Shown here: positions 25,405 through 61,221 of the stretch, in pieces
How the letters are laid out: every line of letters starts with the position of its first letter
Numbering within the stretch: the first letter of the stretch is position 1
Source: an uncultured Bacilli bacterium
GTDB taxonomy: Bacteria; Bacillota_I; Bacilli_A; RF39; UBA660
Assembly (NCBI GenBank): GCA_958413985.1
Contig: CATYVZ010000003.1
Coordinates: forward strand, 18,751-82,750
Direction of reading: 5' to 3'
Length of the DNA stretch: 64,000 nucleotides
Notes under the pieces: model-generated
Told to the model about the DNA's origin: nothing
The model's database searches: none
Seen by the model: the letters and a program-made list of their open reading frames with translations, nothing else
Made by a program: the position numbers and the translations under genes

Positions 25405-25552
25405 ATTTTCACCTAAATTTATTATATATTATTTTTAAATATTTATCAATATAAGAAAAAATATTATACTTATTAAAAATAGGTATTTAATTCACACCCT
25501 TTTTAACTAGTGGAATATGCTATATTAGAAAATAAATGAAGGGGTGGATTAT

Positions 25553-35824: not shown

Positions 35825-36682
35825 TTATTTACCACTTAATATTTTACTTATAATCTCCTTATATTTGCTTTCATTTATTTGTTTATCTAAAGTATTTGTC
35901 AAATCTTTTATGGCCTTTTCAACTAGTTCTTTTTTGTTAATTAACGATTTATATACTATGTTTAGTTTTTCTTGATTTTCAGTTATATATTTATTATTTG
36001 TATCATAATAAAAATATCTTTTAATAAAGCTTTTATTATCTTTAAACTCATTAATAAAATGACTAATATTTATCAAATTTACATATGTACTCAAATCAAT
36101 AAAATTTAAATTAAATTTACTTTCTTCATTACCTATTTTTTTATTTAAAAAATTCAAATACATGTATTCTATTACTAACATTATGTATTTTAAATTACCT
36201 AATAAATAATTTTTATACTTTATAGTTTCACTCATATATGACAGTAATTCCTTCATACTGGATGGATGAATAATTTTACAAAGGTATTTATAAATTTCAT
36301 TGAAATCTTCTTTTTCAAAATAATCTGTAAAAATTTCTTTACAATTAAATTCTAAGATTGATCTTAAATCTCTTGAAACTGTATCTAATGTTATATTAAG
36401 TTTCTTATCATATGATTTTGCTATTATATAAATAATATTTTCATATAAAGTTCTTAAAATTGTGGCCGCATTTAATAAATCTTGTTTTTCTATAAGTTCA
36501 TTAACTAATCTAAAATCATGAGTAATTTTGATATACAAATTTTTTGACTTATTATATTTGCTTATTTTCTTAAATTCAAAATTATCTATTTCATCCAAAT
36601 ATACATAATTTGCACAGTTTAATATTCTCATACATTTTTTATAATTATTTATTCGTTTTATAAACTGACTTGCTGTTGCCAT
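35825..36682 (-). CDS. Hypothetical protein (285 aa) in the R-M/defense-like locus
   Basis: Lys/Asn-rich, predicted helical. No motif recognised by eye. Co-oriented with the 36839 gene, separated by a 156-bp spacer. Confidence 0.4.
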   Translation of the reverse strand: MATASQFIKRINNYKKCMRILNCANYVYLDEIDNFEFKKISKYNKSKNLYIKITHDFRLVNELIEKQDLLNAATILRTLYENIIYIIAKSYDKKLNITLDTVSRDLRSILEFNCKEIFTDYFEKEDFNEIYKYLCKIIHPSSMKELLSYMSETIKYKNYLLGNLKYIMLVIEYMYLNFLNKKIGNEESKFNLNFIDLSTYVNLINISHFINEFKDNKSFIKRYFYYDTNNKYITENQEKLNIVYKSLINKKELVEKAIKDLTNTLDKQINESKYKEIISKILSGK

Positions 36683-36838
36683 AATATCACCTTTGTAATT
36701 AATTATTATACCATAAAAAAGTCATCACTGACTTTTCTCATCATAATTCCATAACCCAATTTAACAGCAAGTAAAATTTCGCTTTTATTTTTCAGCATTT
36801 ATAATTTCCAAGCGTATCCTATTTTATCATCTTTTTCA

Positions 36839-37696
36839 TTATTCACTATCTATTATATTTGATAATTCAAATCTTTCTCCATATTTTTTTAATATATCCT
36901 CTGCGAATGATAAGAACGAAATATCTTCTAATTCTAAATCAAAGTCATTATCAATTAATCCATCTTTTTTTAGTTCATCAGTTGTATTATATATTACCGG
37001 TTTTTCTTTTGAAAAATCAACTATTAAAAGTGCGCATCTTTCATATTTATACTCATCATCATCTTTATTTAATCTGTTATTAATTGCAGAAAAGAAACTT
37101 ATATATTTTGCTAAATTTGTTTTTCTATTTGAAAAAGATACAATATTATTCTTAGCATCAGACTCATTATATTCATAAACAGGAATTAGATATACCTCAC
37201 CTAAAACAATACTTTTATAAATTGTGTGTAAATTCATAGCTTCTGCAAATGTTCTTTCAAATAGTGTATCGGCATTTTTCGCCAAACTACTAAGCTGACT
37301 TCTTATATTTATTACCAGACAATTAGATGTATATTCAATTCCAAACATGTCTTTTTTATTTTCATGCTTCAAAGGACCCCAATCAACAACGATTTCCTCT
37401 TTTTCAACATTAGAGGGAATTACTGTTACATCCTGATCTTTTTGTTTTAAAAAACCTGTTATTTTGACTTCTGGATTAGAGCGACCCAACGGAGGAAAAA
37501 TATTTCCGGATTTTACTTTATTCCTAACTAATTCTTCTTTTACACATTCGTGCAAATATCCTATTAATCTAGATGATCTTATCAAACTTTCTTTCGCTAA
37601 TGATCCATTACCAAAAATTTTCCCCTCATTTTCTCCTGTGGAAATACATAATTCTATTTCTTTTTTTATTATTGACATACAATTTTCTATATTCAT
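36839..37696 (-). CDS. Hypothetical protein (285 aa), candidate restriction endonuclease partner of the divergent methyltransferase
   Basis: Divergently transcribed from the MTase gene across a 117-bp shared upstream region. Its size is typical of Type II REases. No PD-(D/E)XK motif could be assigned by eye. Confidence 0.35.
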   Translation of the reverse strand: MNIENCMSIIKKEIELCISTGENEGKIFGNGSLAKESLIRSSRLIGYLHECVKEELVRNKVKSGNIFPPLGRSNPEVKITGFLKQKDQDVTVIPSNVEKEEIVVDWGPLKHENKKDMFGIEYTSNCLVINIRSQLSSLAKNADTLFERTFAEAMNLHTIYKSIVLGEVYLIPVYEYNESDAKNNIVSFSNRKTNLAKYISFFSAINNRLNKDDDEYKYERCALLIVDFSKEKPVIYNTTDELKKDGLIDNDFDLELEDISFLSFAEDILKKYGERFELSNIIDSE

Positions 37697-37813
37697 AAAA
37701 GCAACCTCTTAATATATTTTAACATTTTTTGTATTTTTTTTAAATTATTTGACAGTTATTTAATAAAAATATCTTTTTTTAATGTATAATTAGTATATAA
37801 GGATGGTGCATAA

Positions 37814-39604
37814 ATGAAAAACAATATTATATCAAAACTTTTACATTCTTACTCTATTGTAGATATAGAAAACGCTGCCATCAAATTATTTTTAAATAAC
37901 AATAATATTTCAGATATAAAAAATAGAATTATTCAAAATAGAATTAATATCGTTAATTCTGATATTTTAGAAACTTTAAAAAATAATTTTAATATTAAAA
38001 CTATTGATTCATTAGACAAATTTTTTGAAAATTTATTTAATGAAAAAGAAAAAACTGAAAACGGTATAGTATTTACTCCAGATTTTATAGCTGATTACAT
38101 TGTTAAAAATACTATTACAAGTTTTAATGAAAATACAAAAATCATTGATCCTTCTTGTGGATGCGGAATATTTTTAATTTCCACCATAAAACATATAAAA
38201 AGTTTAACTAATATTTCAATTAGTAATATTATTAAAAACAATTTATACGGAATAGATTTACAAAAAGAAAATATTGAAAGAGTTAAAGTATTGATATCAT
38301 TATATGCTATCATAAATGATGAAGATAATGAAGAATATAGTTTTAATTTAAAATGCTGTGATAGTTTATTTAGTGACTGGAAAAATATTTTTAAAGTTAA
38401 TAAATTTGACTATATAATTGGAAACCCGCCTTATATTAACAATCATGATCTAAAAGATGAGTATATAAATTTATTAAAAAATAGTTATGAATCAACTCAA
38501 GAAGGCACTTTCAACATTTTCTATGTTTTTATTGAAAAAAGCTCAATAAATTTATCAGATACAGGAAAAATTGGATATATTATTCCAAATAATTTTCTTC
38601 ATATTAAATCTGCCAAAAAATTAAGACAATACATAAAAAATAATAATTTATTAAATACTATCATTGATTTTAAAGATAATACTGTGTTTTCTCCTGTTTT
38701 AACATATAACTCTATTGTTTTCTTAACTAAAAATAATACAACAATTAAATATGCTCAAGTAAAGAAAACTAAAAACATTAATAACATCTTAGAAAATATT
38801 AATTTCAAAACAAAAAAAATTGATGAATTAGATGATGATTGTTGGATTTTATCAAATAACAATACAATTAATAACATTAGAAAAATTGAATCATATAATA
38901 AAATTGATTCGTTTATAAAAACTGGTATTGCAACTTTAAGAGATAAGTTATTTATATTAGACGGATATGATGAAGACAAAAAATTATATTTTAAAAGTAT
39001 TGATAATATTATATATTATATAGAACCAGAGATAACCAAACCATTCATTAAAATTTCTAAATATAAGGCAACTAAAAAAATAGAAAGAATAATTTTTCCA
39101 TATGAAATAAAACATGGCAAATCATCTATTTACGATATAGAAAAATTAAAAAAATTATTTCCATTGTGCTATAAATATTTTGAAGATAATAAAACTTTAA
39201 TAGAAAAAAAAGAAAAAGGTAAAATTATAACTCCTTGGTATATTTATGGTAGAGCGCAGGGATTAAATTTGTTTGATGACAAAATTATTTTTTCTACATT
39301 TAATAGTTTGCCAGAATTTATGGATTGTCCAAATAATGAGGCTCTTTTATCAAATGGTTATTGTATAACTAATTTTCCATATAATAAAATGTTATTATTA
39401 AAAATACTAAATTCTAAAGTTATGAAATATTATATAGAAAATACAAGTTATAGTATTTCTGGTAATTATAAATGTTTCCAGAAAAAATATATTAAAAACT
39501 TCTCTATACCTAATATAGATAAAAATATAGAAATGGAGATTTTACAATTAAATGGTAAAAAATTAGATGAATATCTATTTAATTTATACAAATTAGATGA
39601 ATAA
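37814..39604 (+). CDS. N6-adenine-specific DNA methyltransferase (gamma class: motif I before NPPY, large C-terminal target-recognition region)
   Basis: Motif I IIDPSCGCGIFL and motif IV YIIGNPPYI. 596 aa with a single catalytic domain. Confidence 0.75.
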   Translation: MKNNIISKLLHSYSIVDIENAAIKLFLNNNNISDIKNRIIQNRINIVNSDILETLKNNFNIKTIDSLDKFFENLFNEKEKTENGIVFTPDFIADYIVKNTITSFNENTKIIDPSCGCGIFLISTIKHIKSLTNISISNIIKNNLYGIDLQKENIERVKVLISLYAIINDEDNEEYSFNLKCCDSLFSDWKNIFKVNKFDYIIGNPPYINNHDLKDEYINLLKNSYESTQEGTFNIFYVFIEKSSINLSDTGKIGYIIPNNFLHIKSAKKLRQYIKNNNLLNTIIDFKDNTVFSPVLTYNSIVFLTKNNTTIKYAQVKKTKNINNILENINFKTKKIDELDDDCWILSNNNTINNIRKIESYNKIDSFIKTGIATLRDKLFILDGYDEDKKLYFKSIDNIIYYIEPEITKPFIKISKYKATKKIERIIFPYEIKHGKSSIYDIEKLKKLFPLCYKYFEDNKTLIEKKEKGKIITPWYIYGRAQGLNLFDDKIIFSTFNSLPEFMDCPNNEALLSNGYCITNFPYNKMLLLKILNSKVMKYYIENTSYSISGNYKCFQKKYIKNFSIPNIDKNIEMEILQLNGKKLDEYLFNLYKLDE

Positions 39605-47966: not shown

Positions 47967-48719
47967 TTAATTTATAGGTAAAGCGATCGATGGTGAATTT
48001 TGATTTAAACCATTCAAATAATAACTTGGAACATTCCCTTGAATAAGCTTTAAAGCCACGGGAACTGTGGTGTTTATACTAGTTTTATCAGTGATGAACG
48101 GTAATATTATTTGAAAAGATAAGTCTAAAACTACATTGACCTCAATTAATGCATTGTTGATACCATAATCGGTTACCGTTGTATTTACATAACTGACAAT
48201 ATCGCCAACCAAACTAAAACGAACGGGAACTTTAGGACCAACATTTGCTAAAAAAGAATTACCAAATATAACTCCACTTGGTATTTCATAAATAATACCT
48301 TGCTTTAATTTGCTTTGATTATAATCCATTAAAGCATTAGTGGTCAAATTTAGTAATTCTATTTTTCCTTGCTCCAAATATTTTAAGTTACTTTGAATTA
48401 AAGCTGTTGTTTCAGTCAATATTTTGTTAACTGTTATCGGATTAAAATCGATTGATTTTATTTCATCTTCTTCTTTTGTAATGATAAACAATTCCTCGAT
48501 ATCGATATTTTCGGTTATATTTTTATTAATAGCATCGTTTATAACAATACTGACCAATTTTCGTGATTCCATCTCAGCATATTCTAATAAAACAGGATTA
48601 GCTTTTAAACTGATAAATTTTAAGGATAAAAATATAAGGATAACAAAGATAAATATAATCAAAATTAATTTATTTATCTTTCTTTGCTTTTTTTTTAATT
48701 TTATTCGTCTTCGCATCAT
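47967..48719 (-). CDS. Sporulation protein YunB-like
   Basis: 250 aa. Basic N-terminus and a single TM segment, the size and topology of YunB. Confidence 0.45.
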   Translation of the reverse strand: MMRRRIKLKKKQRKINKLILIIFIFVILIFLSLKFISLKANPVLLEYAEMESRKLVSIVINDAINKNITENIDIEELFIITKEEDEIKSIDFNPITVNKILTETTALIQSNLKYLEQGKIELLNLTTNALMDYNQSKLKQGIIYEIPSGVIFGNSFLANVGPKVPVRFSLVGDIVSYVNTTVTDYGINNALIEVNVVLDLSFQIILPFITDKTSINTTVPVALKLIQGNVPSYYLNGLNQNSPSIALPIN

Positions 48720-49278: not shown

Positions 49279-50754
49279 TTATCCTATTCTAAAAGCTGGA
49301 GCTACGCCTAAAGTATTAGCAAGACCATAATAGCCCGCTTTACCATAAAGATCGACATAGTAAAAATAGCGATAATCGCCAACGTAAGGCGTACGTAACC
49401 ACCAATCTGATCTACTTCCTTGAAATTTCTTTTGTGATTCACCATTATTACTAGCTGAAGTTGTGTTGTTATTATTATAGTAATCTAATTGTCTTGTTAA
49501 TGCTTCGGCTGTATCAATTAACCAATTAGTTGGTTCCGGAATATAGGCTGATATAGATATTCCAAATAATTCTGTGGGAGATAATAAATATAATTTATCT
49601 GTTGAGGTAAAATTGGAACTATCACCTGGGCCATAACCTGATACTGTATAAGTATCTATTATAACACTTCTTAAATCACTTGGTAAAGCATTATATATAT
49701 CTTCATTCACAAAACTATATATCTCACTTCCTGGCCAACCTCTTCCAGTAGTATCAGTTGAATCCACGTTATGTTCAGTTATAATATCAACAAATTCTAC
49801 TACAAAACCACACGCTGTTTGTGAAAATCCTTCACTATTACATTCTTCTGGAGTTGACATATTCACTATTCTTACTGTAAAAGTCTGTTCACTTCCATTA
49901 GTATATCCTTCTACTGTTACCTCTTTAGTATCTCCTACATTATATACACTTGTATTACCATCTTTAATCGCTTGAGCAATTATCTCCCATGAATCTTTAG
50001 CAAACGATACTGGTTTTAGTTCAGCATATGTTATTAATATGTTATCAGTTACATTTGAAAGATATAAACTATATTGGTCAAATGTATAACTATCTTGATC
50101 AAGGATCAAATCACCAACTTTAACTTCAACATTAGGAATTAATTCTATAAAGTTTATAGTTAAATCCCCGCCACTTATAACTTGTTTAGGATAACCAGGG
50201 TCTGTTGGAAAATCTGCATAAGTGACTGTATAAAATGATCGAAAATCAAAATCTAAATTTAAGGCATAAGTCGTATTGCTGGCATTATAGCCACCATCTT
50301 TATATTTTATCGTTATATAAAATTCTTTTTTTATTCCTAAACTACATTGATTGTTATTGCATAGTTTATCTTGTAAAGTGTAACCACTAAGCTCATATTC
50401 GAGGTTACTTGGTAAATTATTTATAGCAAAAATTCCCATTTCGACATTGCCAAAATTTGTTACATCTACTTTATAGGTAATTGTAGAGTCACTATTAGGC
50501 AAGTTAACTCCCATCGAAATATTAGAAACATTATATTCTTCATATGAAGATATCGCAGCATTAGTATAAGAATCAACCGAGATACCTGTGACTCTTATAT
50601 AAGCTTCTATTCTTACATCAACTGCAATTCCACCAATATTTAAAGTTGTACCAAAAGCAGAATAAGCAATACTAAGTAAAACAACAAAAATAGCGACTAT
50701 GATTGGTATAGTTTGAATATTAAACAGTCTTTGGTATAAAATGCCCCCCCCCAT
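49279..50754 (-). CDS. Secreted/surface protein with poly-G tract at the 5' end and a C-terminal WWLRxPY...GVAPAFRI module
   Basis: ORF MGGGILYQRLFNIQTIPIIVAIFVVLLSIAYSAF is a signal anchor. Removing one G from the G9 tract fuses an upstream ATG, giving MLKKRSKLANSTHGGGILYQ... Confidence 0.55.
   Translation of the reverse strand: MGGGILYQRLFNIQTIPIIVAIFVVLLSIAYSAFGTTLNIGGIAVDVRIEAYIRVTGISVDSYTNAAISSYEEYNVSNISMGVNLPNSDSTITYKVDVTNFGNVEMGIFAINNLPSNLEYELSGYTLQDKLCNNNQCSLGIKKEFYITIKYKDGGYNASNTTYALNLDFDFRSFYTVTYADFPTDPGYPKQVISGGDLTINFIELIPNVEVKVGDLILDQDSYTFDQYSLYLSNVTDNILITYAELKPVSFAKDSWEIIAQAIKDGNTSVYNVGDTKEVTVEGYTNGSEQTFTVRIVNMSTPEECNSEGFSQTACGFVVEFVDIITEHNVDSTDTTGRGWPGSEIYSFVNEDIYNALPSDLRSVIIDTYTVSGYGPGDSSNFTSTDKLYLLSPTELFGISISAYIPEPTNWLIDTAEALTRQLDYYNNNNTTSASNNGESQKKFQGSRSDWWLRTPYVGDYRYFYYVDLYGKAGYYGLANTLGVAPAFRIG
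50744..50752. repeat. Homopolymeric C9 (G9 on the coding strand) tract at the start codon of the surface-protein gene
   Basis: Plus strand atgCCCCCCCCCatg. The longest G/C homopolymer seen in a ~25% GC window. Confidence 0.9.
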
Positions 50755-50869
50755 GTGTGCTATTTGCTAACTTACTTCTTTTTTTTAACATCTAACTACG
50801 CCTACTTTCTATATTTTTATTATATATTATTTATCTATCAAAAGCAATATTTTATTTATAAATAAAAAA

Positions 50870-51415
50870 CTACAAATAAATTGTAGTTTTTGAAATTGGT
50901 TCTTCATCGTCGCAATATCCTTGCATTAAAACAACTTCATTATTAGCTAAACTTTGTTTCACATCGATAACTCTTTGATTTCTAGAACCTTTAAATTTTA
51001 AATCTAAACTTCTTTGTTGTAAAATAAATCTACCATCGACTAAAACGTCGATATAACTTAAAAATTCTAAAACCAAATTATCATTTAACTTTAATAGTTG
51101 TTCAAAAGTGTATCCTGTATAACACCAAACATTTAAGTTTTGTTCCTTGCAGTACTTGGCTATTTCTAAACAGGGCTCAACTTGAAAAAATGGATCGCCA
51201 CCGGAAAAAGTTATTCCATCTTGGCCTTGTAAATCAGATATTGTCTTTTTTACACTTTCAACATCTTCTAAAAAGCCACCTTGGAAGTCCCACGTTCCTT
51301 GATTATGACAGCCGATGCAATGGTGAGAACAACCTTGCGTCCAAATGACTGTTCTAATTCCCTCACCATCGACAATACTGTCAAATTGAAGGGGCGCAGC
51401 CAATCTTATTTGCAT
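50870..51415 (-). CDS. nrdG: Anaerobic ribonucleoside-triphosphate reductase activating protein (radical SAM)
   Basis: CSHHCIGCHN cluster-binding CxxxCxxC motif. 181 aa. Its start overlaps the stop of the upstream micro-ORF (TAATG). Confidence 0.85.
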   Translation of the reverse strand: MQIRLAAPLQFDSIVDGEGIRTVIWTQGCSHHCIGCHNQGTWDFQGGFLEDVESVKKTISDLQGQDGITFSGGDPFFQVEPCLEIAKYCKEQNLNVWCYTGYTFEQLLKLNDNLVLEFLSYIDVLVDGRFILQQRSLDLKFKGSRNQRVIDVKQSLANNEVVLMQGYCDDEEPISKTTIYL

Positions 51416-51579
51416 TATGCAGCACTTTCTAAATCTTTCGTGCTATGTTTAACACGATCATGTTCTTCAGCTTTTTTGGCATTGTTGAAACGATCAACAG
51501 TTCCTGCTAAATAACCAGTAATACGACGAATTCTTTCAAATTTAACACCTTCGCCAACTTTTTTTTCTTCGTATTTCAT
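51415..51579 (-). CDS. Glycyl-radical segment of class III RNR encoded as a separate 54-aa ORF (MKYEEKKVGEGVKFERIRRITGYLAGTVDRFNNAKKAEEHDRVKHSTKDLESAA)
   Basis: RIRRITGYLAG...RFNNAKKAEEHDRVKH aligns with the E. coli NrdD C-terminus RRVCGYLGSPDARPFNAGKQEEVKRRVKH. It has its own GAAGGG RBS 7 nt upstream. It is in the same frame as nrdD but separated from it by TAG. Confidence 0.7.
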   Translation of the reverse strand: MKYEEKKVGEGVKFERIRRITGYLAGTVDRFNNAKKAEEHDRVKHSTKDLESAA

Positions 51580-51594
51580 TATTTTCCCTTCTTT

Positions 51595-53907
51595 CTATCT
51601 TCCAAATTTTGTCAAATCCATATTTTTAATGGTTTCAACACTAACACCTTCGTATTCGTGACGGCCACAGCCTGGACAAACATCACCAATCACACCAGTA
51701 TAGCCACAAACTGGATCACGATCGACTGGATGATTAATTGCTCCATAACCGATACCTTCTTTATACATAAGCCTGATTATACTTTCAAAAGCTTCTAAAT
51801 TCTTTGTCGTATCTCCATCTAGTTCAACATAAGTAATATGACCAGCATTAGTCAAAGCATGATAAGGTGCTTCAACATGAATTTTTTCAGCGGCTGAAAT
51901 ATTATAATAAACAGGGATATGGAAGGAATTAGTATAATAATCTCGATCAGTAATGCCTTTTAATTTTCCATAAATGGCACGATCGATATTAGTAAATCTA
52001 CCAGATAAGCCTTCAGCTGGAGTAGCTAATAAAGTGAAATTCAAATTATATTTACTAGCATATTCATCACATTTTTTACGCATAAAAGTGATGATTTTGT
52101 AACCTAATTTTCTAGCTTCTTCATCTTCTCCATGATGTTTACCAACTAAAGCTTTCAAACATTCTGCCAAACCGATAAAACCGATCGATAAAGTACCATG
52201 TTTATATACCTTACGTAACCTATCATTAGGTTTTAATTTTTCTGAATCAAGCCAAACACCACTTCCTAATAAAAATGGGAAATTATATACTTTCTTAGTA
52301 CATTGAAACTCAAATCTTTCTAATAATTGATCTCTAACTAAATCCATTTTTTCTTCTAGTTCTTTAAAGAAACCATCTAAGTCTGTTTTATCATTAACAA
52401 CTAGACCATGTTTAATACCTAATCTTGGCAAATTGATCGTTGTAAAAGATAAATTGCCACGTCCTGGTGTAACTGCTTTATCTGGATCGACTACATTACC
52501 CAAAACACGAGTTCGGCATCCCATGTAACCAACTTCTGTTGTATAGTCTCCATTATAGTATTGTTTATTAAATGGTGCATCCATAAATGAAAAATTCGGG
52601 AACAATCTTTTAGCTGAAACTTTACAAGCTAATTTAAACAAATCATAATTAGGATCATTTTTTTCATAGTTTGTTCCTTTACGAACTTTAAAAATTGAGA
52701 TTGGGAAAATAGGTGTTTCGCCTTTTCCTAACCCAGCATCAGTAGCCAATAGATAATTTTTGACTACCATTCTTCCTTCTGGGGAAATATCAGTACCAAA
52801 GTTGATTGAAGAAAATGGTACTTGAGCACCAGCTCTTGAATGCATCGTATTTAAATTATGAATGAATGCTTCCATAGCTTGATATGTTATACGGTCAGTT
52901 TTAGCTAAAGCTTTTTCATACGCAACCGCAAATAATCTTTCGACTTCTGAAGATTCTTTAGCAAAATGATAAAAATCACTAATATCAAATTGAATACTTT
53001 CTAACTTATCGATTTCTTTAACAATACTATTCATACTGACAAATTTGCCAAAATCACTGTAATCTAGCAAATCTGAGATAGTTTGCTTAAATTGTTTTTT
53101 AAATGTATTTAAAATTCCCGGTGCCATATAATAATCGAAAGCTGGTATACTTTGTCCTCCGTGTTGATCATTTTGATTAGATTGGATGGCAATGGCAGCT
53201 AAAGCACTATACGACATAATATCCTTTGGTGCTCTTAAATGACCATGACCAGTCGAAAAACCTGTTTTAAATAATTTACTTAAATCTATTTGCATACAAG
53301 TAGTTGTTCCCATTGCATAGAAATCCATATCATGAACATGAATATCACCACTATCATGAGCTTCTGAAAATTTGTATTTCATTAAATAAGCTTTACAGAA
53401 TTCCTTAGAAACCGTACTACCATATTGCAACATTGTTCCCATCGCGGTATCACCGTCGACGTTGGCATTTTCTCTTTTGCCATCTTCTTCATGAGCTGAT
53501 TTTAATCCTAAACTCTCGATAGCTTTCAAAAATTTATGTAATTGCTTTTCATCAGAAAACATCTTTCGTGATAAATTTCTTCTTTCGCGATATTCAGAGA
53601 AACTTTCATAAACATCGTTGTAACCTTTTTTTTGTAATTGTTCTTCGATCATATCTTGAATTGTCTCGATTTTTATTTTATCTTCATTAGCGTATTCTTT
53701 TTCGATTCTTTTTAACACACCTTCATAAACGACATTGATATCTTTAGTTGTATATTTTAATTTCTCACCAGTCTCTTCATCAATTTCATTTACGCTATCA
53801 AAACCCTTTTTAATAGCTAAAGCAATTTTAGAACCGTTAAAATCAACTTTTTTACCGTTTCTTTTTACAACTTGTAAGTTTGTAATTTTTTCTTCAACAT
53901 CAATCAT
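51595..53907 (-). CDS. nrdD: Anaerobic ribonucleoside-triphosphate reductase (class III), catalytic subunit lacking the glycyl-radical motif because of an in-frame TAG
   Basis: 770 aa. ATP-cone N-terminus and a class III RNR body ending in the zinc-ribbon region VCGYTGVIGDVCPGCG. It then stops 16 codons before the RxxGY glycyl-radical motif. Confidence 0.85.
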   Translation of the reverse strand: MIDVEEKITNLQVVKRNGKKVDFNGSKIALAIKKGFDSVNEIDEETGEKLKYTTKDINVVYEGVLKRIEKEYANEDKIKIETIQDMIEEQLQKKGYNDVYESFSEYRERRNLSRKMFSDEKQLHKFLKAIESLGLKSAHEEDGKRENANVDGDTAMGTMLQYGSTVSKEFCKAYLMKYKFSEAHDSGDIHVHDMDFYAMGTTTCMQIDLSKLFKTGFSTGHGHLRAPKDIMSYSALAAIAIQSNQNDQHGGQSIPAFDYYMAPGILNTFKKQFKQTISDLLDYSDFGKFVSMNSIVKEIDKLESIQFDISDFYHFAKESSEVERLFAVAYEKALAKTDRITYQAMEAFIHNLNTMHSRAGAQVPFSSINFGTDISPEGRMVVKNYLLATDAGLGKGETPIFPISIFKVRKGTNYEKNDPNYDLFKLACKVSAKRLFPNFSFMDAPFNKQYYNGDYTTEVGYMGCRTRVLGNVVDPDKAVTPGRGNLSFTTINLPRLGIKHGLVVNDKTDLDGFFKELEEKMDLVRDQLLERFEFQCTKKVYNFPFLLGSGVWLDSEKLKPNDRLRKVYKHGTLSIGFIGLAECLKALVGKHHGEDEEARKLGYKIITFMRKKCDEYASKYNLNFTLLATPAEGLSGRFTNIDRAIYGKLKGITDRDYYTNSFHIPVYYNISAAEKIHVEAPYHALTNAGHITYVELDGDTTKNLEAFESIIRLMYKEGIGYGAINHPVDRDPVCGYTGVIGDVCPGCGRHEYEGVSVETIKNMDLTKFGR

Positions 53908-54060
53908 AACATTCCCTCTACCTTCTAATATTAATTATAGTCATATATTACGAAAAAGTCAAACAAAATTTCATATTTTTTTAATTTTTATAAAATTTTA
54001 CTTTAACAAAAAATTAAAAACTTAAAAAACCCATTATTTTATAAATTCATAATTTTATTA

Positions 54061-54077
54061 TTAATTTTTGGTTAATT
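54061..54077. repeat. TTAATTTTTGGTTAATT motif copy 1 in the nrdD leader
   Basis: A near-identical copy (TTAATTTTCGGTTAATT) lies 70 bp downstream. Both are in the 380-bp AT-rich region upstream of nrdD. Confidence 0.5.
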
Positions 54078-54130
54078 AAAAATGTAAAAAATGGTAATTT
54101 TCTTTAATATAAAAGTTAAAACTACCAATA

Positions 54131-54147
54131 TTAATTTTCGGTTAATT
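54131..54147. repeat. TTAATTTTCGGTTAATT motif copy 2 in the nrdD leader
   Basis: See copy 1 (54061-54077). Confidence 0.5.
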
Positions 54148-54288
54148 TTTGAAAAAAATCAAAAAAATAAAAAATCATTATTTTTAAATTTCTGATTTTT
54201 ACAAAAAAGTAAAATTTTGTTGTCGAAAATATAAAACAAACATAATTTTGTATTTTAATAAAAAGCTTATTTTATAATATAATTAAAT

Positions 54289-54657
54289 ATGAAGAAAAGA
54301 GATCTGGAAGCAATAAATGCACAATTTATAATTTTAACCTTGCTCGCTATTACTTTAATAATATCATTTGTTGTGCTCTATGACGAAAAGCAACGGATCG
54401 AAAACAAGAAAAACCCACTCGGCGATAAATATAGATATGTTAATTTGTTTAATCGAGTTTTATTCTTGTTGACAGTAATATATAGTTTATATGTAAATTA
54501 TCAACAATACCAAAGAAAAAGAGGAGTACAAGAAGCTCCCTTTAAACATCAAGTATATGCATCTATTTTTAACGTAATCGGCGGTATAATCACTCTATAT
54601 GTCGTTTTTGAAACTTGGAACAACGTCGATATTGCCGACTTTGAAAATACTACCTAG
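54289..54657 (+). CDS. Small hypothetical membrane protein (3 predicted TM segments)
   Basis: 122-aa ORF with hydrophobic segments. No recognised motif. Confidence 0.4.
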   Translation: MKKRDLEAINAQFIILTLLAITLIISFVVLYDEKQRIENKKNPLGDKYRYVNLFNRVLFLLTVIYSLYVNYQQYQRKRGVQEAPFKHQVYASIFNVIGGIITLYVVFETWNNVDIADFENTT

Positions 54658-55529
54658 TTTTTATGATTGATAACAATTCTATTGATAGCGATATAGATAA
54701 TCAATAAAAATATCCCACTAAAACTAAATAAGACACCTATTTTAAACCAAATTGTAAGTAGGATAGTAATCAATGGTGAAAGTAATGTTTCCATATTATC
54801 AATTTGCGAAATAATTATATTGTTGATAAAACTATTGATAGAACCCAAAATAACGAATAAAACACCAGCGACGATCATTGGAATAGCTAAATACTTTAAT
54901 GGTTTATAAAAAGACCATAAACAAAAAATTGTAATAATAAATAAAATAGCTAAAATCAAATATAAATATCCGACATTAAAATTTAAAAAAGTTCTGATTG
55001 AAGAAACCGGTAGATTTCCTATCATTTCTTGTCGTTCTGGAATGATTTTTGGCAAATCTTCACAATATTCAATAATATATTCATCTAATTGATCTTTATC
55101 TATTATAATATTTATATGATTATCTAATGAATCATTAGCCACAACGATCATTTTATTAACTACATCATCTGATAATTGAGGTTGATCCCCACCATTGACC
55201 AGATAATCGATCATCTTGCTAAAAAAATCGCCTAAAATTAAATTTAATTCTTCACTTTCCAATATATCATCCATAATTTTCTTTGGTATATTGTTATCCA
55301 AACCTAATTGATAAATTTCTTCTCTTAAGGTCTGTCCAGATTCTTCTTGATTGAAAACTTGATTTAAATCGATATTAAGAATCTCAGCATTTTTTACATA
55401 ATCAGATAAATTTTCACGATTGATCAAACTTTTACCAGATTGAAGTAAAACAACTATAATAATTAGTAAAAACATTAAAAAAGAATTTATGACGGCCAAT
55501 ATTTTACCAATTTTTTTTAAAATTTTCAC
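54654..55529 (-). CDS. Hypothetical membrane protein
   Basis: 291 aa. An N-terminal TM segment, an acidic central domain and C-terminal TM segments. Confidence 0.4.
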   Translation of the reverse strand: MKILKKIGKILAVINSFLMFLLIIIVVLLQSGKSLINRENLSDYVKNAEILNIDLNQVFNQEESGQTLREEIYQLGLDNNIPKKIMDDILESEELNLILGDFFSKMIDYLVNGGDQPQLSDDVVNKMIVVANDSLDNHINIIIDKDQLDEYIIEYCEDLPKIIPERQEMIGNLPVSSIRTFLNFNVGYLYLILAILFIITIFCLWSFYKPLKYLAIPMIVAGVLFVILGSINSFINNIIISQIDNMETLLSPLITILLTIWFKIGVLFSFSGIFLLIIYIAINRIVINHKN

Positions 55530-55743
55530 AAATTTTCCTCCTACAATTACGATAATAATGGATATTTTTGATATAGATTTTATATAAATTCATTATCGCA
55601 ACAGCTTTTATATATTTATTATACAATGTGAAAAGTTGTTAGTCAACCACTCCTAATCATAGTTAACAGATCTAACATAAGGTAGATAGTTTACTTAAAT
55701 TGAACCATTTTTCTATTATATAAAAAGACAAAAAAAGCCGAAG

Positions 55744-56508
55744 TTAAATTCCGACTTGATGAAAATCTAATTTTAATTTATCAGCAACAGTAACAATAAA
55801 CTCTGAATTGGTAGGTTTAGCGCGATCGATATCCACACTATGACCAAAAATATTTTCCATTAATTTGATATCGCCACGATTCCAACTAACTTCAACCGCG
55901 TGTCTAATCGATCTTTCAACTCGCGATACTGTCGTGTTATATTTACTTGCTAATTCCGGATACAATTCTTTAGTGATCCCACCTATCATCTCAGGATTTT
56001 CAAAAATCATATTGACAGCATCTCTTAAAAATTGATAACCTTTAATATGAGAAGGTATTCCTAAATCATGCAACAACTTACTAATCGAGATCTGTAAGTT
56101 ACTATTATAAAAATCGATACTCTTTTCATTCTTTCTTTTAAAAACATCGTAGATTTTCTTTTCTAAATCATCCAAATCAAATGGTTTTAAAACAAAATAA
56201 CTAACATCATATTCTGAAACTTCTCTAATTACTTCACTAGCATTATAACTAGTTTCAACGATCACTTTTTTATTGATATTATTTCTTTGCATTTGTTCTA
56301 AAACATAAATGCCATCTTTTTTAGGCATTATTAAATCTAACAAAATAATGTCATATTGATCTGTCTTGTTTTTTATTATTTCAAAACCTTCTAAACCGTC
56401 ATGGGCTTCTAATACTACATTAATATCATTGTTATTTTTAAAATATTCCTTTACAGCATCAATCAATTTGACGTTATCGTCAATCATCAAAACTCTTATA
56501 TTTTTCAT
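55744..56508 (-). CDS. spo0A: Stage 0 sporulation response regulator Spo0A
   Basis: Receiver domain (MIDDN...LLDLIMP) plus the Spo0A-specific C-terminal DNA-binding domain (TVSRVERSIRHAVEVSWNRGD...KPTNSEFIV). Confidence 0.9.
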   Translation of the reverse strand: MKNIRVLMIDDNVKLIDAVKEYFKNNNDINVVLEAHDGLEGFEIIKNKTDQYDIILLDLIMPKKDGIYVLEQMQRNNINKKVIVETSYNASEVIREVSEYDVSYFVLKPFDLDDLEKKIYDVFKRKNEKSIDFYNSNLQISISKLLHDLGIPSHIKGYQFLRDAVNMIFENPEMIGGITKELYPELASKYNTTVSRVERSIRHAVEVSWNRGDIKLMENIFGHSVDIDRAKPTNSEFIVTVADKLKLDFHQVGI

Positions 56509-56616
56509 AAATTCTCCCTCTATATTACTGCTGTATTTATATTATATAATATTAATTAGCCATTTACTAGAGTAAATATTAGCTAATTTTGTCGAAAAAA
56601 ACAAAAAATTGTCGTT

Positions 56617-57294
56617 CTAAAGATTATCGACAATTTCTTTTAATTGTTTGCAATCTGTTGAAGCCTTTCCGATTAGAAAACCCGATAAATTTTTTACTTC
56701 TTTTAATGTTTTTATATTGTCTTTATCGACACTACCACCATATAAAATTTTAGCACCTTGCTGACAAATTTTGTTTAATGTTGTTTGAATAAAGCTAATT
56801 GTAGCTTCAATTTCTTCATTAGCAGGCGTAATGCCCGTTCCTATACACCAAATCGGTTCATAAGCGATAATTACATTTTCTAAATTATCGACACCTTTCA
56901 AGTCATTTAACAACTGATACTCCAATTTTTGCTTGCGATCTTCGCCTTTATTCTCACCAATACATAAAACAACTTTTAAACCATTATGCAATCCTTGAAG
57001 CACTTTAGCATTTATTTCTTCGTCGGTTTCTTTTTGATATGTTCTTCTTTCACTATGACCTACTAATGTATAGGTTACCCCCATATCTTTAGCTTGTCTA
57101 GCACTAATCTCACCAGTATAAGCCCCAAGATCATTAGTAGCGATATTTTGAAGTCCAACAGCAAATTTATGATTTAAAAAATATGGAACAAACAAAGCCG
57201 TAGGACATAAGACGATATCGCGATCGATGTTTTCAATATAATTTAAAACATCTTCGTAAGTCATATACATTTTCAAATTTCCAATTACGATCAT
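56617..57294 (-). CDS. tpiA: Triosephosphate isomerase
   Basis: GNLKMY, VGHSERR and YEPIWCIGTG motifs. Confidence 0.92.
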   Translation of the reverse strand: MIVIGNLKMYMTYEDVLNYIENIDRDIVLCPTALFVPYFLNHKFAVGLQNIATNDLGAYTGEISARQAKDMGVTYTLVGHSERRTYQKETDEEINAKVLQGLHNGLKVVLCIGENKGEDRKQKLEYQLLNDLKGVDNLENVIIAYEPIWCIGTGITPANEEIEATISFIQTTLNKICQQGAKILYGGSVDKDNIKTLKEVKNLSGFLIGKASTDCKQLKEIVDNL

Positions 57295-57304
57295 TTTTTC
57301 TCCT

Positions 57305-58462
57305 TTATTTTATATCTATTATTTCAATTCCCGGCAATTTTTTTCCTTCCAATAGTTCTAAGCTTGCTCCACCACCAGTAGAAATATGGGTAAAAACTTG
57401 TTCATAGCCAAAGTTTTTAATTGCACTAGCTGTATCACCGCCACCAGCTATTTTAATAGCATCGATGTTTTCTAATATTTGACAAATGCCTTTAGTACCA
57501 TTGCTATACTTTTCTTCTTCAAACATGCCTACTGGTCCATTCCAGATAATAGTTTTACTGTTATCTAAGTATTGTTTAAATAATTTAACCGTTTTAGGAC
57601 CAATATCCAATCCCTTTTCTTCTTTCGTTATATCTGTGATAAAACGTTCTTTTAAATCAGTGATTACATCGATCGGTAAGATCAATTTTTCTTTGTGTTC
57701 ATTTAACACTTTTTGGCAAAATTCAATATTTTCTTCATCTAATAATGATTTACCAATTTCAACACCACTTGCTTTTAAGAAGGTAAAAGCCATACCACCA
57801 CCTATTAAAATATAGTCAGCTATTTTAACTAAATTTTCGATAACTCCTATTTTATCGCTTACTTTAGCTCCACCCAAAATGACTGTAAACGGTCTTTTAG
57901 GATCATCGATAGCTGGTAATAAATTATCCAATTCCTTTTCGATTAAAAAGCCAATACCACTATCTAAATTACTAGCTATTCCTACGTTAGAAGCATGAGC
58001 ACGATGAGCAGTACCAAAAGCATCATTAATATAAATATCGCCTAAAGAAGCCCAATATTTACCTAGTTCTAAATCGTTTTTACTTTCTTTTTTATCTGGA
58101 AAATCTTCGAATCTTGTATTTTCCATTAATAAAACATCACCATTATTTAAATTAGCAATAGCTGTCTCTAATTCTATTCCCCTAGTGCTAGGTACAAAGG
58201 TAACATTTTTGCCTAATAATTCACTTAATCTAACAGCAACTGGTCTTAGTGTATTTTTTTCTTTGTCACTTTCTTCCTTAATTCTTCCTAAATGACTCAT
58301 CAAAATGACCTTAGCCTTATTATCAATAGCATAGTTAATAGTCTTTAAACTTTCTTTAATTCTTGTGTCATCTTCAATTATGCCATTTTTAATTGGTACA
58401 TTAAAGTCAACTCTAATTATTACTTTTTTGTTATTTAAATCAAAATCTCTTATTGTTTTCAT
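57305..58462 (-). CDS. pgk: Phosphoglycerate kinase
   Basis: RVDFNVP N-terminus and GGGASLELLEGK C-terminal signature. Confidence 0.95.
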   Translation of the reverse strand: MKTIRDFDLNNKKVIIRVDFNVPIKNGIIEDDTRIKESLKTINYAIDNKAKVILMSHLGRIKEESDKEKNTLRPVAVRLSELLGKNVTFVPSTRGIELETAIANLNNGDVLLMENTRFEDFPDKKESKNDLELGKYWASLGDIYINDAFGTAHRAHASNVGIASNLDSGIGFLIEKELDNLLPAIDDPKRPFTVILGGAKVSDKIGVIENLVKIADYILIGGGMAFTFLKASGVEIGKSLLDEENIEFCQKVLNEHKEKLILPIDVITDLKERFITDITKEEKGLDIGPKTVKLFKQYLDNSKTIIWNGPVGMFEEEKYSNGTKGICQILENIDAIKIAGGGDTASAIKNFGYEQVFTHISTGGGASLELLEGKKLPGIEIIDIK

Positions 58463-58477
58463 ATTATATTCCTTTCT

Positions 58478-60115
58478 TTATTGTAATTCGTATGGGGAAT
58501 TAGCAGTTCCTTTACCAGATGTGAATATCAATCCTGATTTTATAAATATAACAGGACGAACTCCATAACTATTAGTTAGGGAAGCTGAACTCATTGAACC
58601 TGTCTGATTAATATATAATGCATAAGAAGTAGTAGAGCGGTTCATCGTCCAATAATAATTTGAAACAGTTGGATTTTCAATCGTATTGACATCGACAAAT
58701 GTCTTACTACTAGATGTCGATAAATCAATATCATTTCCTGAAAACATCTCGCCTATTGTCGGTAAACCAATAGCATTATAAAGTGCCTCGTCTTGAACAA
58801 CTGTGTAACTTGATGAAGTTGATGGATAATCACCTATATAAAATGCATGATTACTACTTATATGACGATAATAAATCGGAATATTATTGGCAAAGGTATC
58901 AACTGCACTAATTATCGTAGAATTATAACCTATTGTTGCTGAACTTCCATACTGACTAGTAGTTGGCAGTAAACCATTTAAAACTATTTTAATACTATCA
59001 TCATATTTGCCTACTACCCTAAATGTACATACATTATCACTACCACACGCATTATCAGTACCTCGATATTGAATATTAATGTATTCTCCTACTTGAACAT
59101 CACTTGTACCTGTTGATTTCGTTTCAGTATAATAGTTAGATGATAAACTACCGGTACCCCCAACAACTACTAAATCTGAAATCTTTATAACAGGGCGCAC
59201 TCCATATCTCATTGTTGTAGGAGCATAAGTAAGAGAAGTTAAAACAACTCTAATATAAGAAGAACTATACCTATTTCCCAACCACCAATAATCACCAATA
59301 TCTAAATAAGAGGATATCCCACCAGCTCTTGTAAATTGATCATTATCTAATAAACCAACTTTTTGAGTAGTGGTGATTTCGTCAACATCAGTATATATTC
59401 CAATGTTGAAGTCATTATTTACTATATTATTTTGAATTCGACTGTCTAAACTATTGTAAAAATAATCATTTAACCAACTATTGATAAAACTATTGGTATA
59501 TGTTTGTTCAGTTGTCCAAATAGAATTGTTAGCATAAATTGTTGTCAGTGGTTGAGCGTTAATTAACGTTAAGGTGTTTTCACTTGTATCAAATTCAACT
59601 ACTCGCCACTGATGTCCACCATACCATAGATAATTGTTACTTACCTCATCATTAGTTCCTTTAAAATAATATATATTTGAATTAGTACTATCTTCTAACA
59701 ATCCTGTTGTATTACTAGAATCATATTGCTCTAATAGTAAACCAATCAACGTTTTTGAAGTCGTCAATTCATAACTAAAAGTCCAATCTTCATTTCTAGT
59801 AATTTTAACAGCATCATCACTACTAAAACTAAGATTAGTATTAGGATTTAAAGTGTTGATATCAATATAATTTTGACCGATCAAATCACGGATAATATTT
59901 ACATAAGTAAAACCACCAACCGTATCTAAGCTATTATCATAATTAGCCATAATATAATTTTCAGTCGCCATATAAATATTGTTTAAAGCTTCTTGACTTT
60001 TATTTTCTTCAGTTTTTTTTGTCATATCTGTTAAAGATGGCAAAGCAATTAAAATCATAATTGCCAGTATAACTAGTATCGCTAGCAATTCAACCAACGT
60101 AAAACCGCGCTTCAT
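58478..60115 (-). CDS. Large prepilin-type (type IV pilin/pseudopilin leader) secreted protein with two C-terminal YGVRPVI-ending modules
   Basis: N-terminal MKRGFTLVELLAILVILAIMILIAL, i.e. G|FTLVE, the prepilin peptidase cleavage/methylation motif. 545 aa with internal and C-terminal YWWLGNRY...YGVRPVI modules. Located between gap and pgk. Confidence 0.6.
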   Translation of the reverse strand: MKRGFTLVELLAILVILAIMILIALPSLTDMTKKTEENKSQEALNNIYMATENYIMANYDNSLDTVGGFTYVNIIRDLIGQNYIDINTLNPNTNLSFSSDDAVKITRNEDWTFSYELTTSKTLIGLLLEQYDSSNTTGLLEDSTNSNIYYFKGTNDEVSNNYLWYGGHQWRVVEFDTSENTLTLINAQPLTTIYANNSIWTTEQTYTNSFINSWLNDYFYNSLDSRIQNNIVNNDFNIGIYTDVDEITTTQKVGLLDNDQFTRAGGISSYLDIGDYWWLGNRYSSSYIRVVLTSLTYAPTTMRYGVRPVIKISDLVVVGGTGSLSSNYYTETKSTGTSDVQVGEYINIQYRGTDNACGSDNVCTFRVVGKYDDSIKIVLNGLLPTTSQYGSSATIGYNSTIISAVDTFANNIPIYYRHISSNHAFYIGDYPSTSSSYTVVQDEALYNAIGLPTIGEMFSGNDIDLSTSSSKTFVDVNTIENPTVSNYYWTMNRSTTSYALYINQTGSMSSASLTNSYGVRPVIFIKSGLIFTSGKGTANSPYELQ

Positions 60116-60197
60116 ATTATCACCATATTTATTATAAATTATTTTTCATAATTAATCAATTATTCTTTTAAATAATAATTATCAAAAAAAAGTCAAA

Positions 60198-61205
60198 TTA
60201 TTGACTTATTTCATTTAAATATTTTGCAGTTCTGACCATTTGATGTGAATAACCCATTTCATTATCATACCAAGCTATAACTTTAACCAACTGTTTACCA
60301 TCAACTTCTAACACATCAGTTAATAAACCATCGACTAACGCTCCACAAGATGAACCAATAATATCGCTTGAAACAACTGGATCAAAAGTAAATTTTAAAG
60401 TTTCATTACAATTATCCATTAAAGCATTATTGATTTCTTCAACCGTAACATTACGACTTAATTCTAAAGTTAAATCAACTACTGATCCGGTTGGTGTTGG
60501 TACTCTTAATGCACTACCATCTAGTTTTCCCTTTAAAGCAGGAATTACTAGACCTAAGGCACTAGCAGCTCCAGTGCTTGATGGAATTATATTCATAGCT
60601 CCAGCTCTACCACGACGAGCTTTTATTCCTTTTTTATGCGCGACATCTAAAATAACTTGATCATTAGTATAAGCATGAACAGTAGTCATATAACCTTTAA
60701 CTATACCAAATTTATCATTGATTACTTTAGCTACTGGCGCTAAACAATTCGTAGTACAAGAAGCTGCCGAAATAATTTGTTCAGTTCCATCTAAAGTTTC
60801 ATGATTTACATTATAAACGATCGTTTTCATCTCACCTTTACCTGGAGCAGAAATGATTACTTTTTTTGCTCCTGCTTGAATATGCTTGTAAGCATCTTCG
60901 TATTTTACAAACTTACCAGTACATTCAAATACTTGATCGATTCCCAATTCTTGCCAAGGTAAATTAACAGGATCCATTTCTTTAAATATTTTGATCCTAC
61001 GACCATTTATTATAATATTATTTTCATCGTAAGTTATTTCATCTAATTTATAGTTACGATGATTACTATCATATTTTAACAGATAAGCTAATTGCTCAGC
61101 ATCTGTCAAATCATTAATAGCCACTATTTCAATACTAGGGTCTTCCTCCATAATTCTAAATACTAATCTTCCAATTCTTCCAAATCCATTAATTGCTACT
61201 TTCAT
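60198..61205 (-). CDS. gap: Glyceraldehyde-3-phosphate dehydrogenase (type I)
   Basis: MKVAINGFGRIGR Rossmann N-terminus and active-site ASCTTNCLAP. The ORF-track start is extended upstream (61241); MKVAING is the likely true start. Confidence 0.93.
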   Translation of the reverse strand: MKVAINGFGRIGRLVFRIMEEDPSIEIVAINDLTDAEQLAYLLKYDSNHRNYKLDEITYDENNIIINGRRIKIFKEMDPVNLPWQELGIDQVFECTGKFVKYEDAYKHIQAGAKKVIISAPGKGEMKTIVYNVNHETLDGTEQIISAASCTTNCLAPVAKVINDKFGIVKGYMTTVHAYTNDQVILDVAHKKGIKARRGRAGAMNIIPSSTGAASALGLVIPALKGKLDGSALRVPTPTGSVVDLTLELSRNVTVEEINNALMDNCNETLKFTFDPVVSSDIIGSSCGALVDGLLTDVLEVDGKQLVKVIAWYDNEMGYSHQMVRTAKYLNEISQ

Positions 61206-61221
61206 TTTATCATTCCTTTCA

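Follow-up and report, generated by a model that had tools for sequence, protein, structure and literature searches.

A predicted modular type IV pilin with two DUF6273 heads, encoded between gap and pgk in an RF39-like Bacilli genome

Why does the gene for a large protein with a prepilin leader lie between the glycolytic genes gap and pgk, and what does this protein have in common with a second protein, encoded in the same stretch, that ends in a similar motif? The question is raised by a 64-kb stretch of DNA of about 28% G+C (the window, which is the sequence covered here; the rest of the genome lies beyond it) from an uncultured Bacilli bacterium (contig CATYVZ010000003.1), whose lineage is placed under Mycoplasmatota by NCBI and under RF39 by GTDB. 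The first protein, which we call X, has 545 residues and is encoded on the minus strand (58478..60115); the second, of 491 residues, is encoded on the same strand by a gene with a poly-G tract (49279..50791; the poly-G gene). A sequence-only reading had drawn attention to both, and its open reading frame (ORF) coordinates and sequences for the two proteins agree with ours. X is probably a three-module type IV pilin that carries two DUF6273 heads and serves as a filament-displayed adhesin, as a minor or tip subunit, from a slot in the glycolytic cluster; most likely it is a variable adhesin made from known parts and not a new kind of system. Loci from other assemblies and metagenome-assembled genomes (MAGs) that were compared with the window are given as L-numbers (L001 to L105).

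X starts with MKRGFTLVELLAILVILAI, in which a basic leader ending in Gly (MKRG) is followed by Phe, a hydrophobic stretch and a Glu at position +5 (Glu9), i.e. all the elements of a class III signal peptide; cleavage is predicted ahead of F5, giving MKRG and then FTLVELLAILVILAIMILIALP. The prepilin leader that had been proposed is genuine, since X scores above the cutoffs of both Pfam N_methyl (22.7 bits, cutoff 21.2) and NCBIfam TIGR02532 (18.2 bits, cutoff 16.3). Moreover, E9, L10 and P26 are invariant among 86 homologues. The signal peptide and the hydrophobic alpha1-N segment occupy residues 1-25 (60041..60115, minus strand), and the whole pilin module extends over residues 1-120 (59756..60115, minus strand). 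An AlphaFold2 (AF2) model built on the 86 homologues (pLDDT 85, pTM 0.77) predicts an alpha1 helix at residues 7-57, a small beta-sheet at 69-119 and then two globular domains, and over residues 6-117 the family profile aligns with type IV pilins of solved structure, PilE1 of Streptococcus sanguinis (8pfb, E 1.6e-8) ranking first; Neisseria PilE was matched as well. The pilin fold, composed of a long alpha1 and a beta-sheet, is therefore present in X according to both the AF2 prediction and the profile match. To judge from these models, X fits the definition of modular pilins by Raynaud et al. (PMC8179133), having a pilin module and two predicted DUF6273 modules.

Beyond the pilin module X contains YGVRPVIKI at residues 304-312 and YGVRPVIFI at 517-525, in agreement with the two modules ending in YGVRPVI(K/F)I that had been described; DYWWLGNRY, which had been placed before both of them, precedes only the first, whereas NYYWTMNRS stands ahead of the second. 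The poly-G protein ends in DWWLRTPYVGDYRYFYYVDLYGKAGYYGLANTLGVAPAFRIG, where the pattern takes the form DWWLRTP...LGVAPAFRIG. Pfam DUF6273 (PF19789, cutoff 23.5) is found in X with 40.1 bits (E 4.5e-10, in two stretches) and in the poly-G protein with 63.4 bits (E 3e-17, residues 327-490). Because both proteins exceed the PF19789 gathering score, the module common to them is, on the profile evidence, real homology and not chance, and the C-terminal similarity noticed at the outset does not vanish on proper alignment, as Pfam places both proteins in DUF6273. A direct BLASTP of X against the poly-G protein gave nothing significant (best E 3.8); because of this the word "paralogous", by which the two had been described, is true only at the level of the domain family, and we dropped the idea of close or recent paralogues in favour of a shared Pfam domain.

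In X, DUF6273 module 1 covers residues 121-315 (59171..59755, minus strand; best Pfam stretch 199-312) and ends in DYWWLGNRY...YGVRPVIKI. Module 2, which corresponds to the second Pfam stretch and to the second globular domain of the AF2 model, covers residues ~340-530 (58526..59098, minus strand), ends in NYYWTMNRS...YGVRPVIFI and has conserved cysteines at positions 357 and 363. The module of the poly-G protein (49285..49776, minus strand) belongs to a subfamily other than that of X. The motif WWL...GVRP is the conserved DUF6273 frame around a hypervariable loop: among the 86 homologues entropy reaches 2.34 bits in loop 1 (residues 283-304; 59204..59269, minus strand) and 2.40 bits in loop 2 (residues 494-517; 58565..58636, minus strand), vs ~0.8 bits in the scaffolds (0.77 in module 1). 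The domain has been reported as C-type-lectin-like, with a C-terminus that carries the variable regions of diversity-generating retroelements (DGRs) (PMC10743442, PMC11792537). When the X model was compared with solved structures the best match was 9qa6, the DUF6273 N-terminal domain of the IgA peptidase of Thomasclavelia ramosa (Foldseek E 1.8e-6), and 20 matches were obtained in BFVD at E<=1e-3, mostly to DUF6273 proteins and to receptor-binding proteins of gut phages.

X belongs to a large family. More than 500 homologues were found, all from metagenomes or MAGs, most of them of about 550 residues and 50-70% identical to X over the full length; the only database name is "type II secretion system protein", given by PGAP to one homologue. 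The MAGs bearing the family include uncultured Bacilli, Tenericutes and Candidatus Faecisoma merdavium; Candidatus Faecisoma is GTDB CAG-878, family CAG-822, order RF39 (PMC8035907). At least 4 to 9 loci of the family are present per MAG (80 loci were kept, and the counts are lower bounds), and the copies stand singly behind housekeeping genes, for example 13 nt past an Asp/Asn-tRNA synthetase gene. The shared module, whose distribution the sequence-only reading had left to a profile search, is the named Pfam family DUF6273, and a profile of module 1 retrieved 811 cluster representatives at E<=1e-3 among 1.84 billion. The parts of these proteins occur in several combinations: the two-head core (X residues ~119-545) is also found behind an N-terminus of the poly-G type, a single protein of L065 has two cores and then a C-terminal module of the poly-G type, and the DUF6273 module of the poly-G protein (58-64% identity) follows prepilin leaders in proteins of ~365 residues. 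Carriers and cargo appear, from these architectures, to be freely mixed in the family.

The absence of pilus assembly genes from the window, already remarked on, was confirmed: no T2SSE, T2SSF or A24 peptidase gene was found in the 64 kb by Pfam searches of all ORFs of at least 120 residues and by motif scans, and the same searches gave no second prepilin motif, reverse transcriptase or Avd. Genes of the PilB, PilC and PilD types do lie beside family members in sister MAGs. In L021 the order is T2SSF, A24 prepilin peptidase, a family member and another prepilin protein; in L061 and L079 a T2SSE ATPase gene is divergent from two small pilins and a family member, and L021 and L079 come from one MAG. 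The family member of L061 is an extreme modular pilin (2731-7284), a prepilin protein of 1517 residues in which about four large Ig-like repeats stand between the pilin module and the two-head core, and which adjoins the T2SSE ATPase and the two small pilins.

The position of X among glycolytic genes can be described precisely. On the minus strand a gene-dense series runs from a PRK-like kinase through gap (60198..61241, with Gp_dh_N and Gp_dh_C; the start given by gene callers is at ~61205), X, pgk (57305..58462, PF00162) and tpiA (56617..57294, PF00121) to spo0A, and continues with two membrane proteins, nrdD, nrdG and the poly-G ORF. X starts 82 nt past the gap stop codon and ends 15 nt ahead of the pgk start codon, which bears out its location between the two genes. 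The arrangement gap-X-pgk, or the part of it that falls within the contig, is found in 10 MAGs whose identities to the window are 88-92% for gap, 83-88% for pgk and 54-63% for X. A wider survey, made as a metagenome scan with pgk, showed that relatives at 58-71% pgk identity keep the order prk-gap...pgk...tpiA-spo0A and that in most of them the gene immediately ahead of pgk, on its 5' side, encodes a prepilin; gap and pgk are contiguous in bacteria at pgk identity of 51% or less. Because a prepilin gene stands 5' of pgk in the 10 MAGs and also in the relatives at 58-71% pgk identity, the site is, as this comparative evidence indicates, an old, clade-wide pilin slot whose cargo varies by lineage. 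X is thus not a recent wedge into the operon, as had been supposed; the insertion is clade-wide without being universal, the two genes being contiguous in the more distant bacteria.

The slot holds small pilins of 120-172 residues with no cargo in L091, L093, L102 and L105, proteins with N_methyl and Laminin_G_3 in L094 and with N_methyl and ALK_LTK_GRD in L095 and L101, and a DUF6273 protein in L092. Homology between the pilin modules of the slot and that of X extends through residue 117, and the small pilins are 31-36% identical to X over residues 1-117. The same site shows further rearrangements in some genomes. In L009 (4427-5887) and L040 (~4260-5887) an AAA-ATPase gene (398 residues in L009) has been inserted between gap and the pilin gene, and after it comes a second, partial copy of the gap 3' end, corresponding to about residues 245-347; this arrangement is a recombination scar in the slot. 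Two extra genes, for a multi-pass membrane protein and a glycosyltransferase-like protein (assigned by eye from the translations), stand between pgk and tpiA in L009 (8840-11028) and also in L008, L011, L013, L015 and L040; the window is without them, its pgk and tpiA being 10 nt apart.

As to expression, neither spacer holds a predicted terminator. The gap-X spacer (60116..60197, 82 nt) contains one sigma70-like match (60159-60131), to which we give no weight, and the X-pgk spacer (58463..58477, 15 nt) holds the pgk ribosome-binding site, which indicates tight coupling. The promoter scan was uninformative, as 51 matches in the region compare with 45.9 expected, i.e. the chance level. From the spacing and from the lack of predicted terminators we infer that X is co-transcribed with pgk-tpiA and hence constitutive.

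The variation of the family, which involves a link to DGRs, an allele swap between strains and a frame-shifting role of the poly-G tract, goes beyond what the sequence-only reading had considered. In L030 one target gene has two variable regions (VR1 at 6508-6603 and VR2 at 7162-7257), and a third, AAC-rich copy, the template repeat (TR; 10783-10878), immediately precedes genes for Avd and a reverse transcriptase (RT); L036 is laid out in the same way, its template lying 71 nt past the stop codon of the target. The RT, which has the motif SIGNLTSQ, was recognised by RVT_1 (E 4e-19) and by a PHROG RT family (E 2e-75), and the accessory protein matches the PHROG family "Avd protein of DGR" (E 1e-9). 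Mismatches between TR and VR are enriched at TR adenines (97/260 A sites vs 75/575 others, and 50/99 vs 18/202 in the other genome; Fisher p ~1e-14 in each of the two). By blastn the template matches ~90 loop regions, in most of the family members of many genomes, and the gap-pgk copies of L011, L013 and L008 are among the genes matched. On this pattern of mismatches the loops of family members in sister genomes are true DGR variable regions, two per protein and served by one template. The complete cassettes (TR, Avd and RT) span 10783-12802 in L030 and 7760-9801 in L036, and each is preceded by an ORF of 136 residues that matches only MutS domain I. TR-like copies were also seen just 3' of family members in L032 (7793-7879), L051 (7389-7465), L058 (7383-7469) and L059 (7780-7865). 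These copies differ from the L030 template without a bias towards adenines, and their captured flanks, which in L059 extend ~5.8 kb further, yielded neither Avd nor RT; they may be additional or orphan templates.

Aligned with the TR and VRs of L030 and L036, the two loops of the window X are at positions equivalent to VR1 and VR2 of the relatives, and it could be supposed that X is itself an active DGR target, mutagenised in trans by a cassette elsewhere in the genome that has its own template. In favour of this, the window is only 64 kb of the genome, a single TR serves many loci in sister genomes, and adenine-biased mismatches accompany an 80-84% match to the relatives' TR in the gap-pgk copies of L011, L013 and L008. 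Against this, the loops of X do not resemble a template: the relatives' TR has no blastn match in the window, no template-like repeat was found there (repeat search with seed 10 and at least 40 nt; word-7 blastn of three loop regions), and the sole word-7 loop match in the window is a weak one between the two loops of X (52 nt, 69%). Because loops 1 and 2 differ from each other in sequence and length, they do not come from one recent template, and their codons are native and AT-rich, whereas those of real VRs are GC-rich and derived from AAC. Furthermore, an identical X protein is present in twelve contigs, VR DNA is 100% identical (at the assembly level) in six loci, one per sample, and a 99% identical variant, P0001, differs at four residues (E141K, Q388K, N398D and A444E) that are all outside the loops. 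The gap-pgk copies of L009 and L040, whose genomes hold identified DGRs, are likewise without a TR match. A match to a TR, a neighbouring RT or Avd gene and hypervariability in the population, which characterize DGR targets, were therefore not found for X within the window and the contigs compared. An active target is improbable, and as far as can be seen from these comparisons the window X looks like a fixed, non-hypermutating member of the family.

Strains differ at the X locus in another way. L090 is a second strain whose flanks are 99% identical to the window, with a different core of 1.06 kb: codons ~186-540 of its X are only 53-77% identical to those of the window, and the breakpoints are sharp. 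The variation seen between strains at this locus is a replacement of the whole 1-kb two-head core. The donor of the L090/P0004 core was not found in our searches, the best other protein being 69% identical, and no silent cassettes were identified; gene conversion from a known paralogue was considered and is not supported by this best match.

The poly-G protein begins with a basic region and a hydrophobic anchor and also contains a beta-rich region and a single DUF6273 module. Its ORF has a listed start at 50754, and the N-termini of homologues point to the ATG at 50791 as the probable true start. The gene holds a tract of 9 G on the coding strand (50744..50752); no other run of at least 8 G or C occurs in the window, and X is without one. 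The ATG at 50791, which has a ribosome-binding site, encodes MLKKRSKLANSTH followed by GGG; its frame is offset by one base from that of the long ORF, and a tract of 8 or 11 G would bring the two together. In the closest relative, L028, the orthologue has G5, is in frame and reads MKKVANSKNRGHLLSKKLFNVRTIPI. A leader of the form M.K.(A/T)NSK.GGG(G)HLLNN-AFTLIELL with G9-G12 heads prepilin family members in sister MAGs, where the frame is kept in paralogues with 9, 9 and 12 G and shifted in those with 10, 10, 11 and 11 G; one MAG has four paralogues with 12, 9, 11 and 11 G. G tracts in leader-coding regions have, on this evidence, the pattern of slipped-strand phase variation. Variation of tract length at one locus was not seen among three consensus assemblies (9 G in the window, L001 and L003), the comparison being confined to these because a lookup of the exact 491-residue product returned no record.

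In the mechanism that we propose, a prepilin peptidase encoded beyond the window would cleave X after Gly4, and a PilB/PilC-type machine, also encoded beyond it, would present X, probably as a minor or tip subunit, on a type IV filament. The signal peptide and the small pilin module would be the carrier and the two tandem DUF6273 modules the cargo, whose heads would bind ligands, with X acting as an adhesin; the gene would be co-transcribed with pgk-tpiA and expressed constitutively. The poly-G protein would present a single DUF6273 head of the other subfamily on a different N-terminal anchor, and its expression would be governed by slippage of the 9-G tract, which at present leaves the proper start out of frame. 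Several points weigh against the part of this reading that concerns X. Processing and assembly are drawn from sister MAGs, as the window has no gene for a prepilin peptidase, an assembly ATPase or a platform protein; a place in the filament, a location at its tip and the binding of ligands are predictions; and co-transcription with the glycolytic genes is deduced from spacing and from the lack of predicted terminators only. A subunit of 545 residues at glycolytic expression levels would be unusual for a minor pilin. The C-type lectin fold is also a weak point, as C-type lectin domains matched the full X model without significance, and module 1 modelled by itself with AF2 had low confidence (pLDDT 68) and no significant PDB match. 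Because the fold searches made here were non-significant or came from a weak model, the description of the heads as lectin-like is taken from PMC10743442.

The main rival to a filament-displayed adhesin is that X is processed as a pilin and is not incorporated into a filament, either remaining at the surface through its alpha1 anchor or being released as the substrate of a pseudopilus similar to that of the type II secretion system (T2SS). The large size of X agrees with this, as do the many family copies that stand singly behind housekeeping genes with no adjacent pilus genes and the fact that a non-pilin N-terminal anchor of the poly-G type can replace the pilin module in the family. The pilin module of X is nevertheless complete and includes the beta-sheet, which is more than a transmembrane helix; the Glu5 involved in pilin packing is invariant; family members adjoin PilB, PilC, PilD and small pilins in sister MAGs; and characterised modular pilins of similar design polymerise into filaments (PMC8179133). 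On balance we consider this rival unlikely. It is still less probable, indeed very improbable, that X is a minor pilin of the ComG pseudopilus or a classical T2SS pseudopilin, for which its PGAP name and weak N-terminal matches to NCBIfam ComGE, ComGC, GspG and ComGD could be invoked. These matches stay far below the curated cutoffs (ComGE 36.7 vs 49, ComGC 31.5 vs 75, GspG 30.2 vs 88.9, ComGD 23.8 vs 70) and cover residues 2-59 only, no comG operon context was seen, and the cargo consists of two DUF6273 modules. In addition, the host is a monoderm spore-former (spo0A, GerA and SASP are present), and a classical T2SS is not expected in such an organism. X might also be what is left of a prophage receptor-binding protein that had entered the operon, an origin that would fit the frequency of DUF6273 in gut phage DGR targets and receptor-binding proteins. 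Phage genes are absent from the flanks of X, synteny with the housekeeping operon is conserved clade-wide and the protein has a bacterial prepilin leader and a pilin module, so that we give this origin hardly any credence.

A broader idea joins the filament-displayed adhesin to the modes of variation described above. The gap-pgk slot might be a site of constitutive expression, whose two-head cargo is swapped by recombination from a genomic pool of paralogues that are diversified by a DGR acting in trans (two VRs per protein and many loci for one template) and gated by poly-G frameshifts in the prepilin leader; this is not the likeliest reading, and we offer it tentatively. By analogy with the pilE/pilS system it may further be speculated, with the same reserve, that three layers of variation produce antigenic or ligand variation of type IV pili in uncultured RF39-like gut Bacilli of reduced genome size, in which a retroelement would generate the diversity.

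The closest known parallels of X are the modular pilins PilB, with a von Willebrand factor A (vWA) module, and PilC, with a concanavalin A (ConA)-like lectin module, of S. sanguinis (PMC8179133, PMC9934059), which have in common with it a class III signal peptide, a small pilin module and a bulky ligand-binding module of a kind foreign to pilus biology. Both hosts are monoderm, and display at the tip or as a minor pilin would be expected in both; moreover, a ConA-like Laminin_G_3 module, similar in kind to that of PilC, is carried by L094 in the same slot as X. In contrast to the S. sanguinis proteins, X has two tandem DUF6273 modules as cargo, its gene is placed between gap and pgk instead of in a pil operon, its family is multi-copy and is diversified by DGRs in sister genomes, and X is known from sequence alone. 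The IgA peptidase of T. ramosa (9qa6; PMC12402451) places DUF6273 on another surface protein of gut Firmicutes, with 285 aligned columns and 14% identity to X; unlike X, it carries the domain ahead of an M64 peptidase and is sortase-anchored.

Variable proteins of DGRs include Mtd of a Bordetella phage and TvpA of Treponema. Tentaclins and the targets in Faecalibacterium prophages (PMC10743442, PMC11792537) have the same Pfam domain as X, with the VR at the C-terminal end between a WWL-type motif and GVRP, and like known DGR targets the family members of sister genomes have a TR, Avd, RT and adenine-specific mismatches. They are unlike phage targets in that the carrier is a bacterial type IV pilin and two VRs per protein depend on one template; the window X is unlike any DGR target in having no TR match or RT in the window and invariant loops. 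The type V pili of Bacteroides resemble the family as a case of a gut commensal that diversifies pilus adhesins by DGR. They differ in that here the pili would be type IV and processed by PilD, the hosts are RF39-like Bacilli, the target belongs to another fold family, and poly-G switches and the replacement of whole cores are layered on. In Neisseria, pilus variation proceeds by recombination between pilE and pilS cassettes, and a poly-G tract is located in the signal-peptide region of pilC. The likeness to Neisseria is that the variable part of a pilin is replaced while the conserved 5' part is kept, and that G tracts in a leader-coding region switch by frameshift; the difference is that no silent cassettes or donor were identified here and that X is without a G tract.

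Modular pilins, DUF6273 as a DGR scaffold, DGR-diversified adhesins of type V pili and poly-G switches are all already known; what is new is the combination of these ingredients in the RF39-like lineage, of which the window X is a static member. In the papers that could be searched, DGR-targeted type IV pilins are mentioned only in passing, in a survey (PMC11661182), and the pilus case that has been characterised is that of the type V pili of Bacteroides; a literature search for DGR and prepilin returned no papers, and one for RF39 and pili nothing relevant to the X family. A type IV equivalent of the DGR-diversified pili, with two VRs per subunit, would extend both the pilus and the DGR fields. 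RF39-like Bacilli are common gut bacteria that are uncultured and have small genomes. Several genes of each such small genome are given to pilin-borne heads that the literature describes as lectin-like, and in sister genomes three separate mechanisms, DGR hypermutation, poly-G switching and the swapping of whole cores, act on the family; this investment suggests a role in surface recognition that is under strong diversifying selection. A conserved pilin gene in the gap-pgk-tpiA cluster is moreover an unusual case in which the expression of an adhesin would be tied to central metabolism.

Other features of the window concern the host. Markers of sporulation and germination are present as a full set, namely GerA, GerAC and a spore permease (17436-21123), CotZ (25544-25999), YunB (47967-48719), Spo0A (55744-56508) and SASP (63574-63768). 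A minus-strand insert of ~3.9 kb in the region 6054-10921 interrupts a gene for an NMT1-type ABC substrate-binding protein, of which the N-terminal part lies at 6054-6506 and the C-terminal part at 10364-10921; the gene is intact in the related genome L086. The insert encodes a large serine recombinase (8447-10006), a HipA-like kinase (7214-8401) and a non-specific endonuclease (6511-7227), and it has the appearance of a mobile or intervening element that became integrated in a spore-former. A second island (35825-39604) has 21-22% G+C, vs ~28% in the window, and encodes an Eco57I/MmeI-type methylase (37814-39604) and two adjacent ORFs of 285 residues (35825-36682 and 36839-37696) to which no function was assigned; it may be an acquired restriction-modification or defence island.

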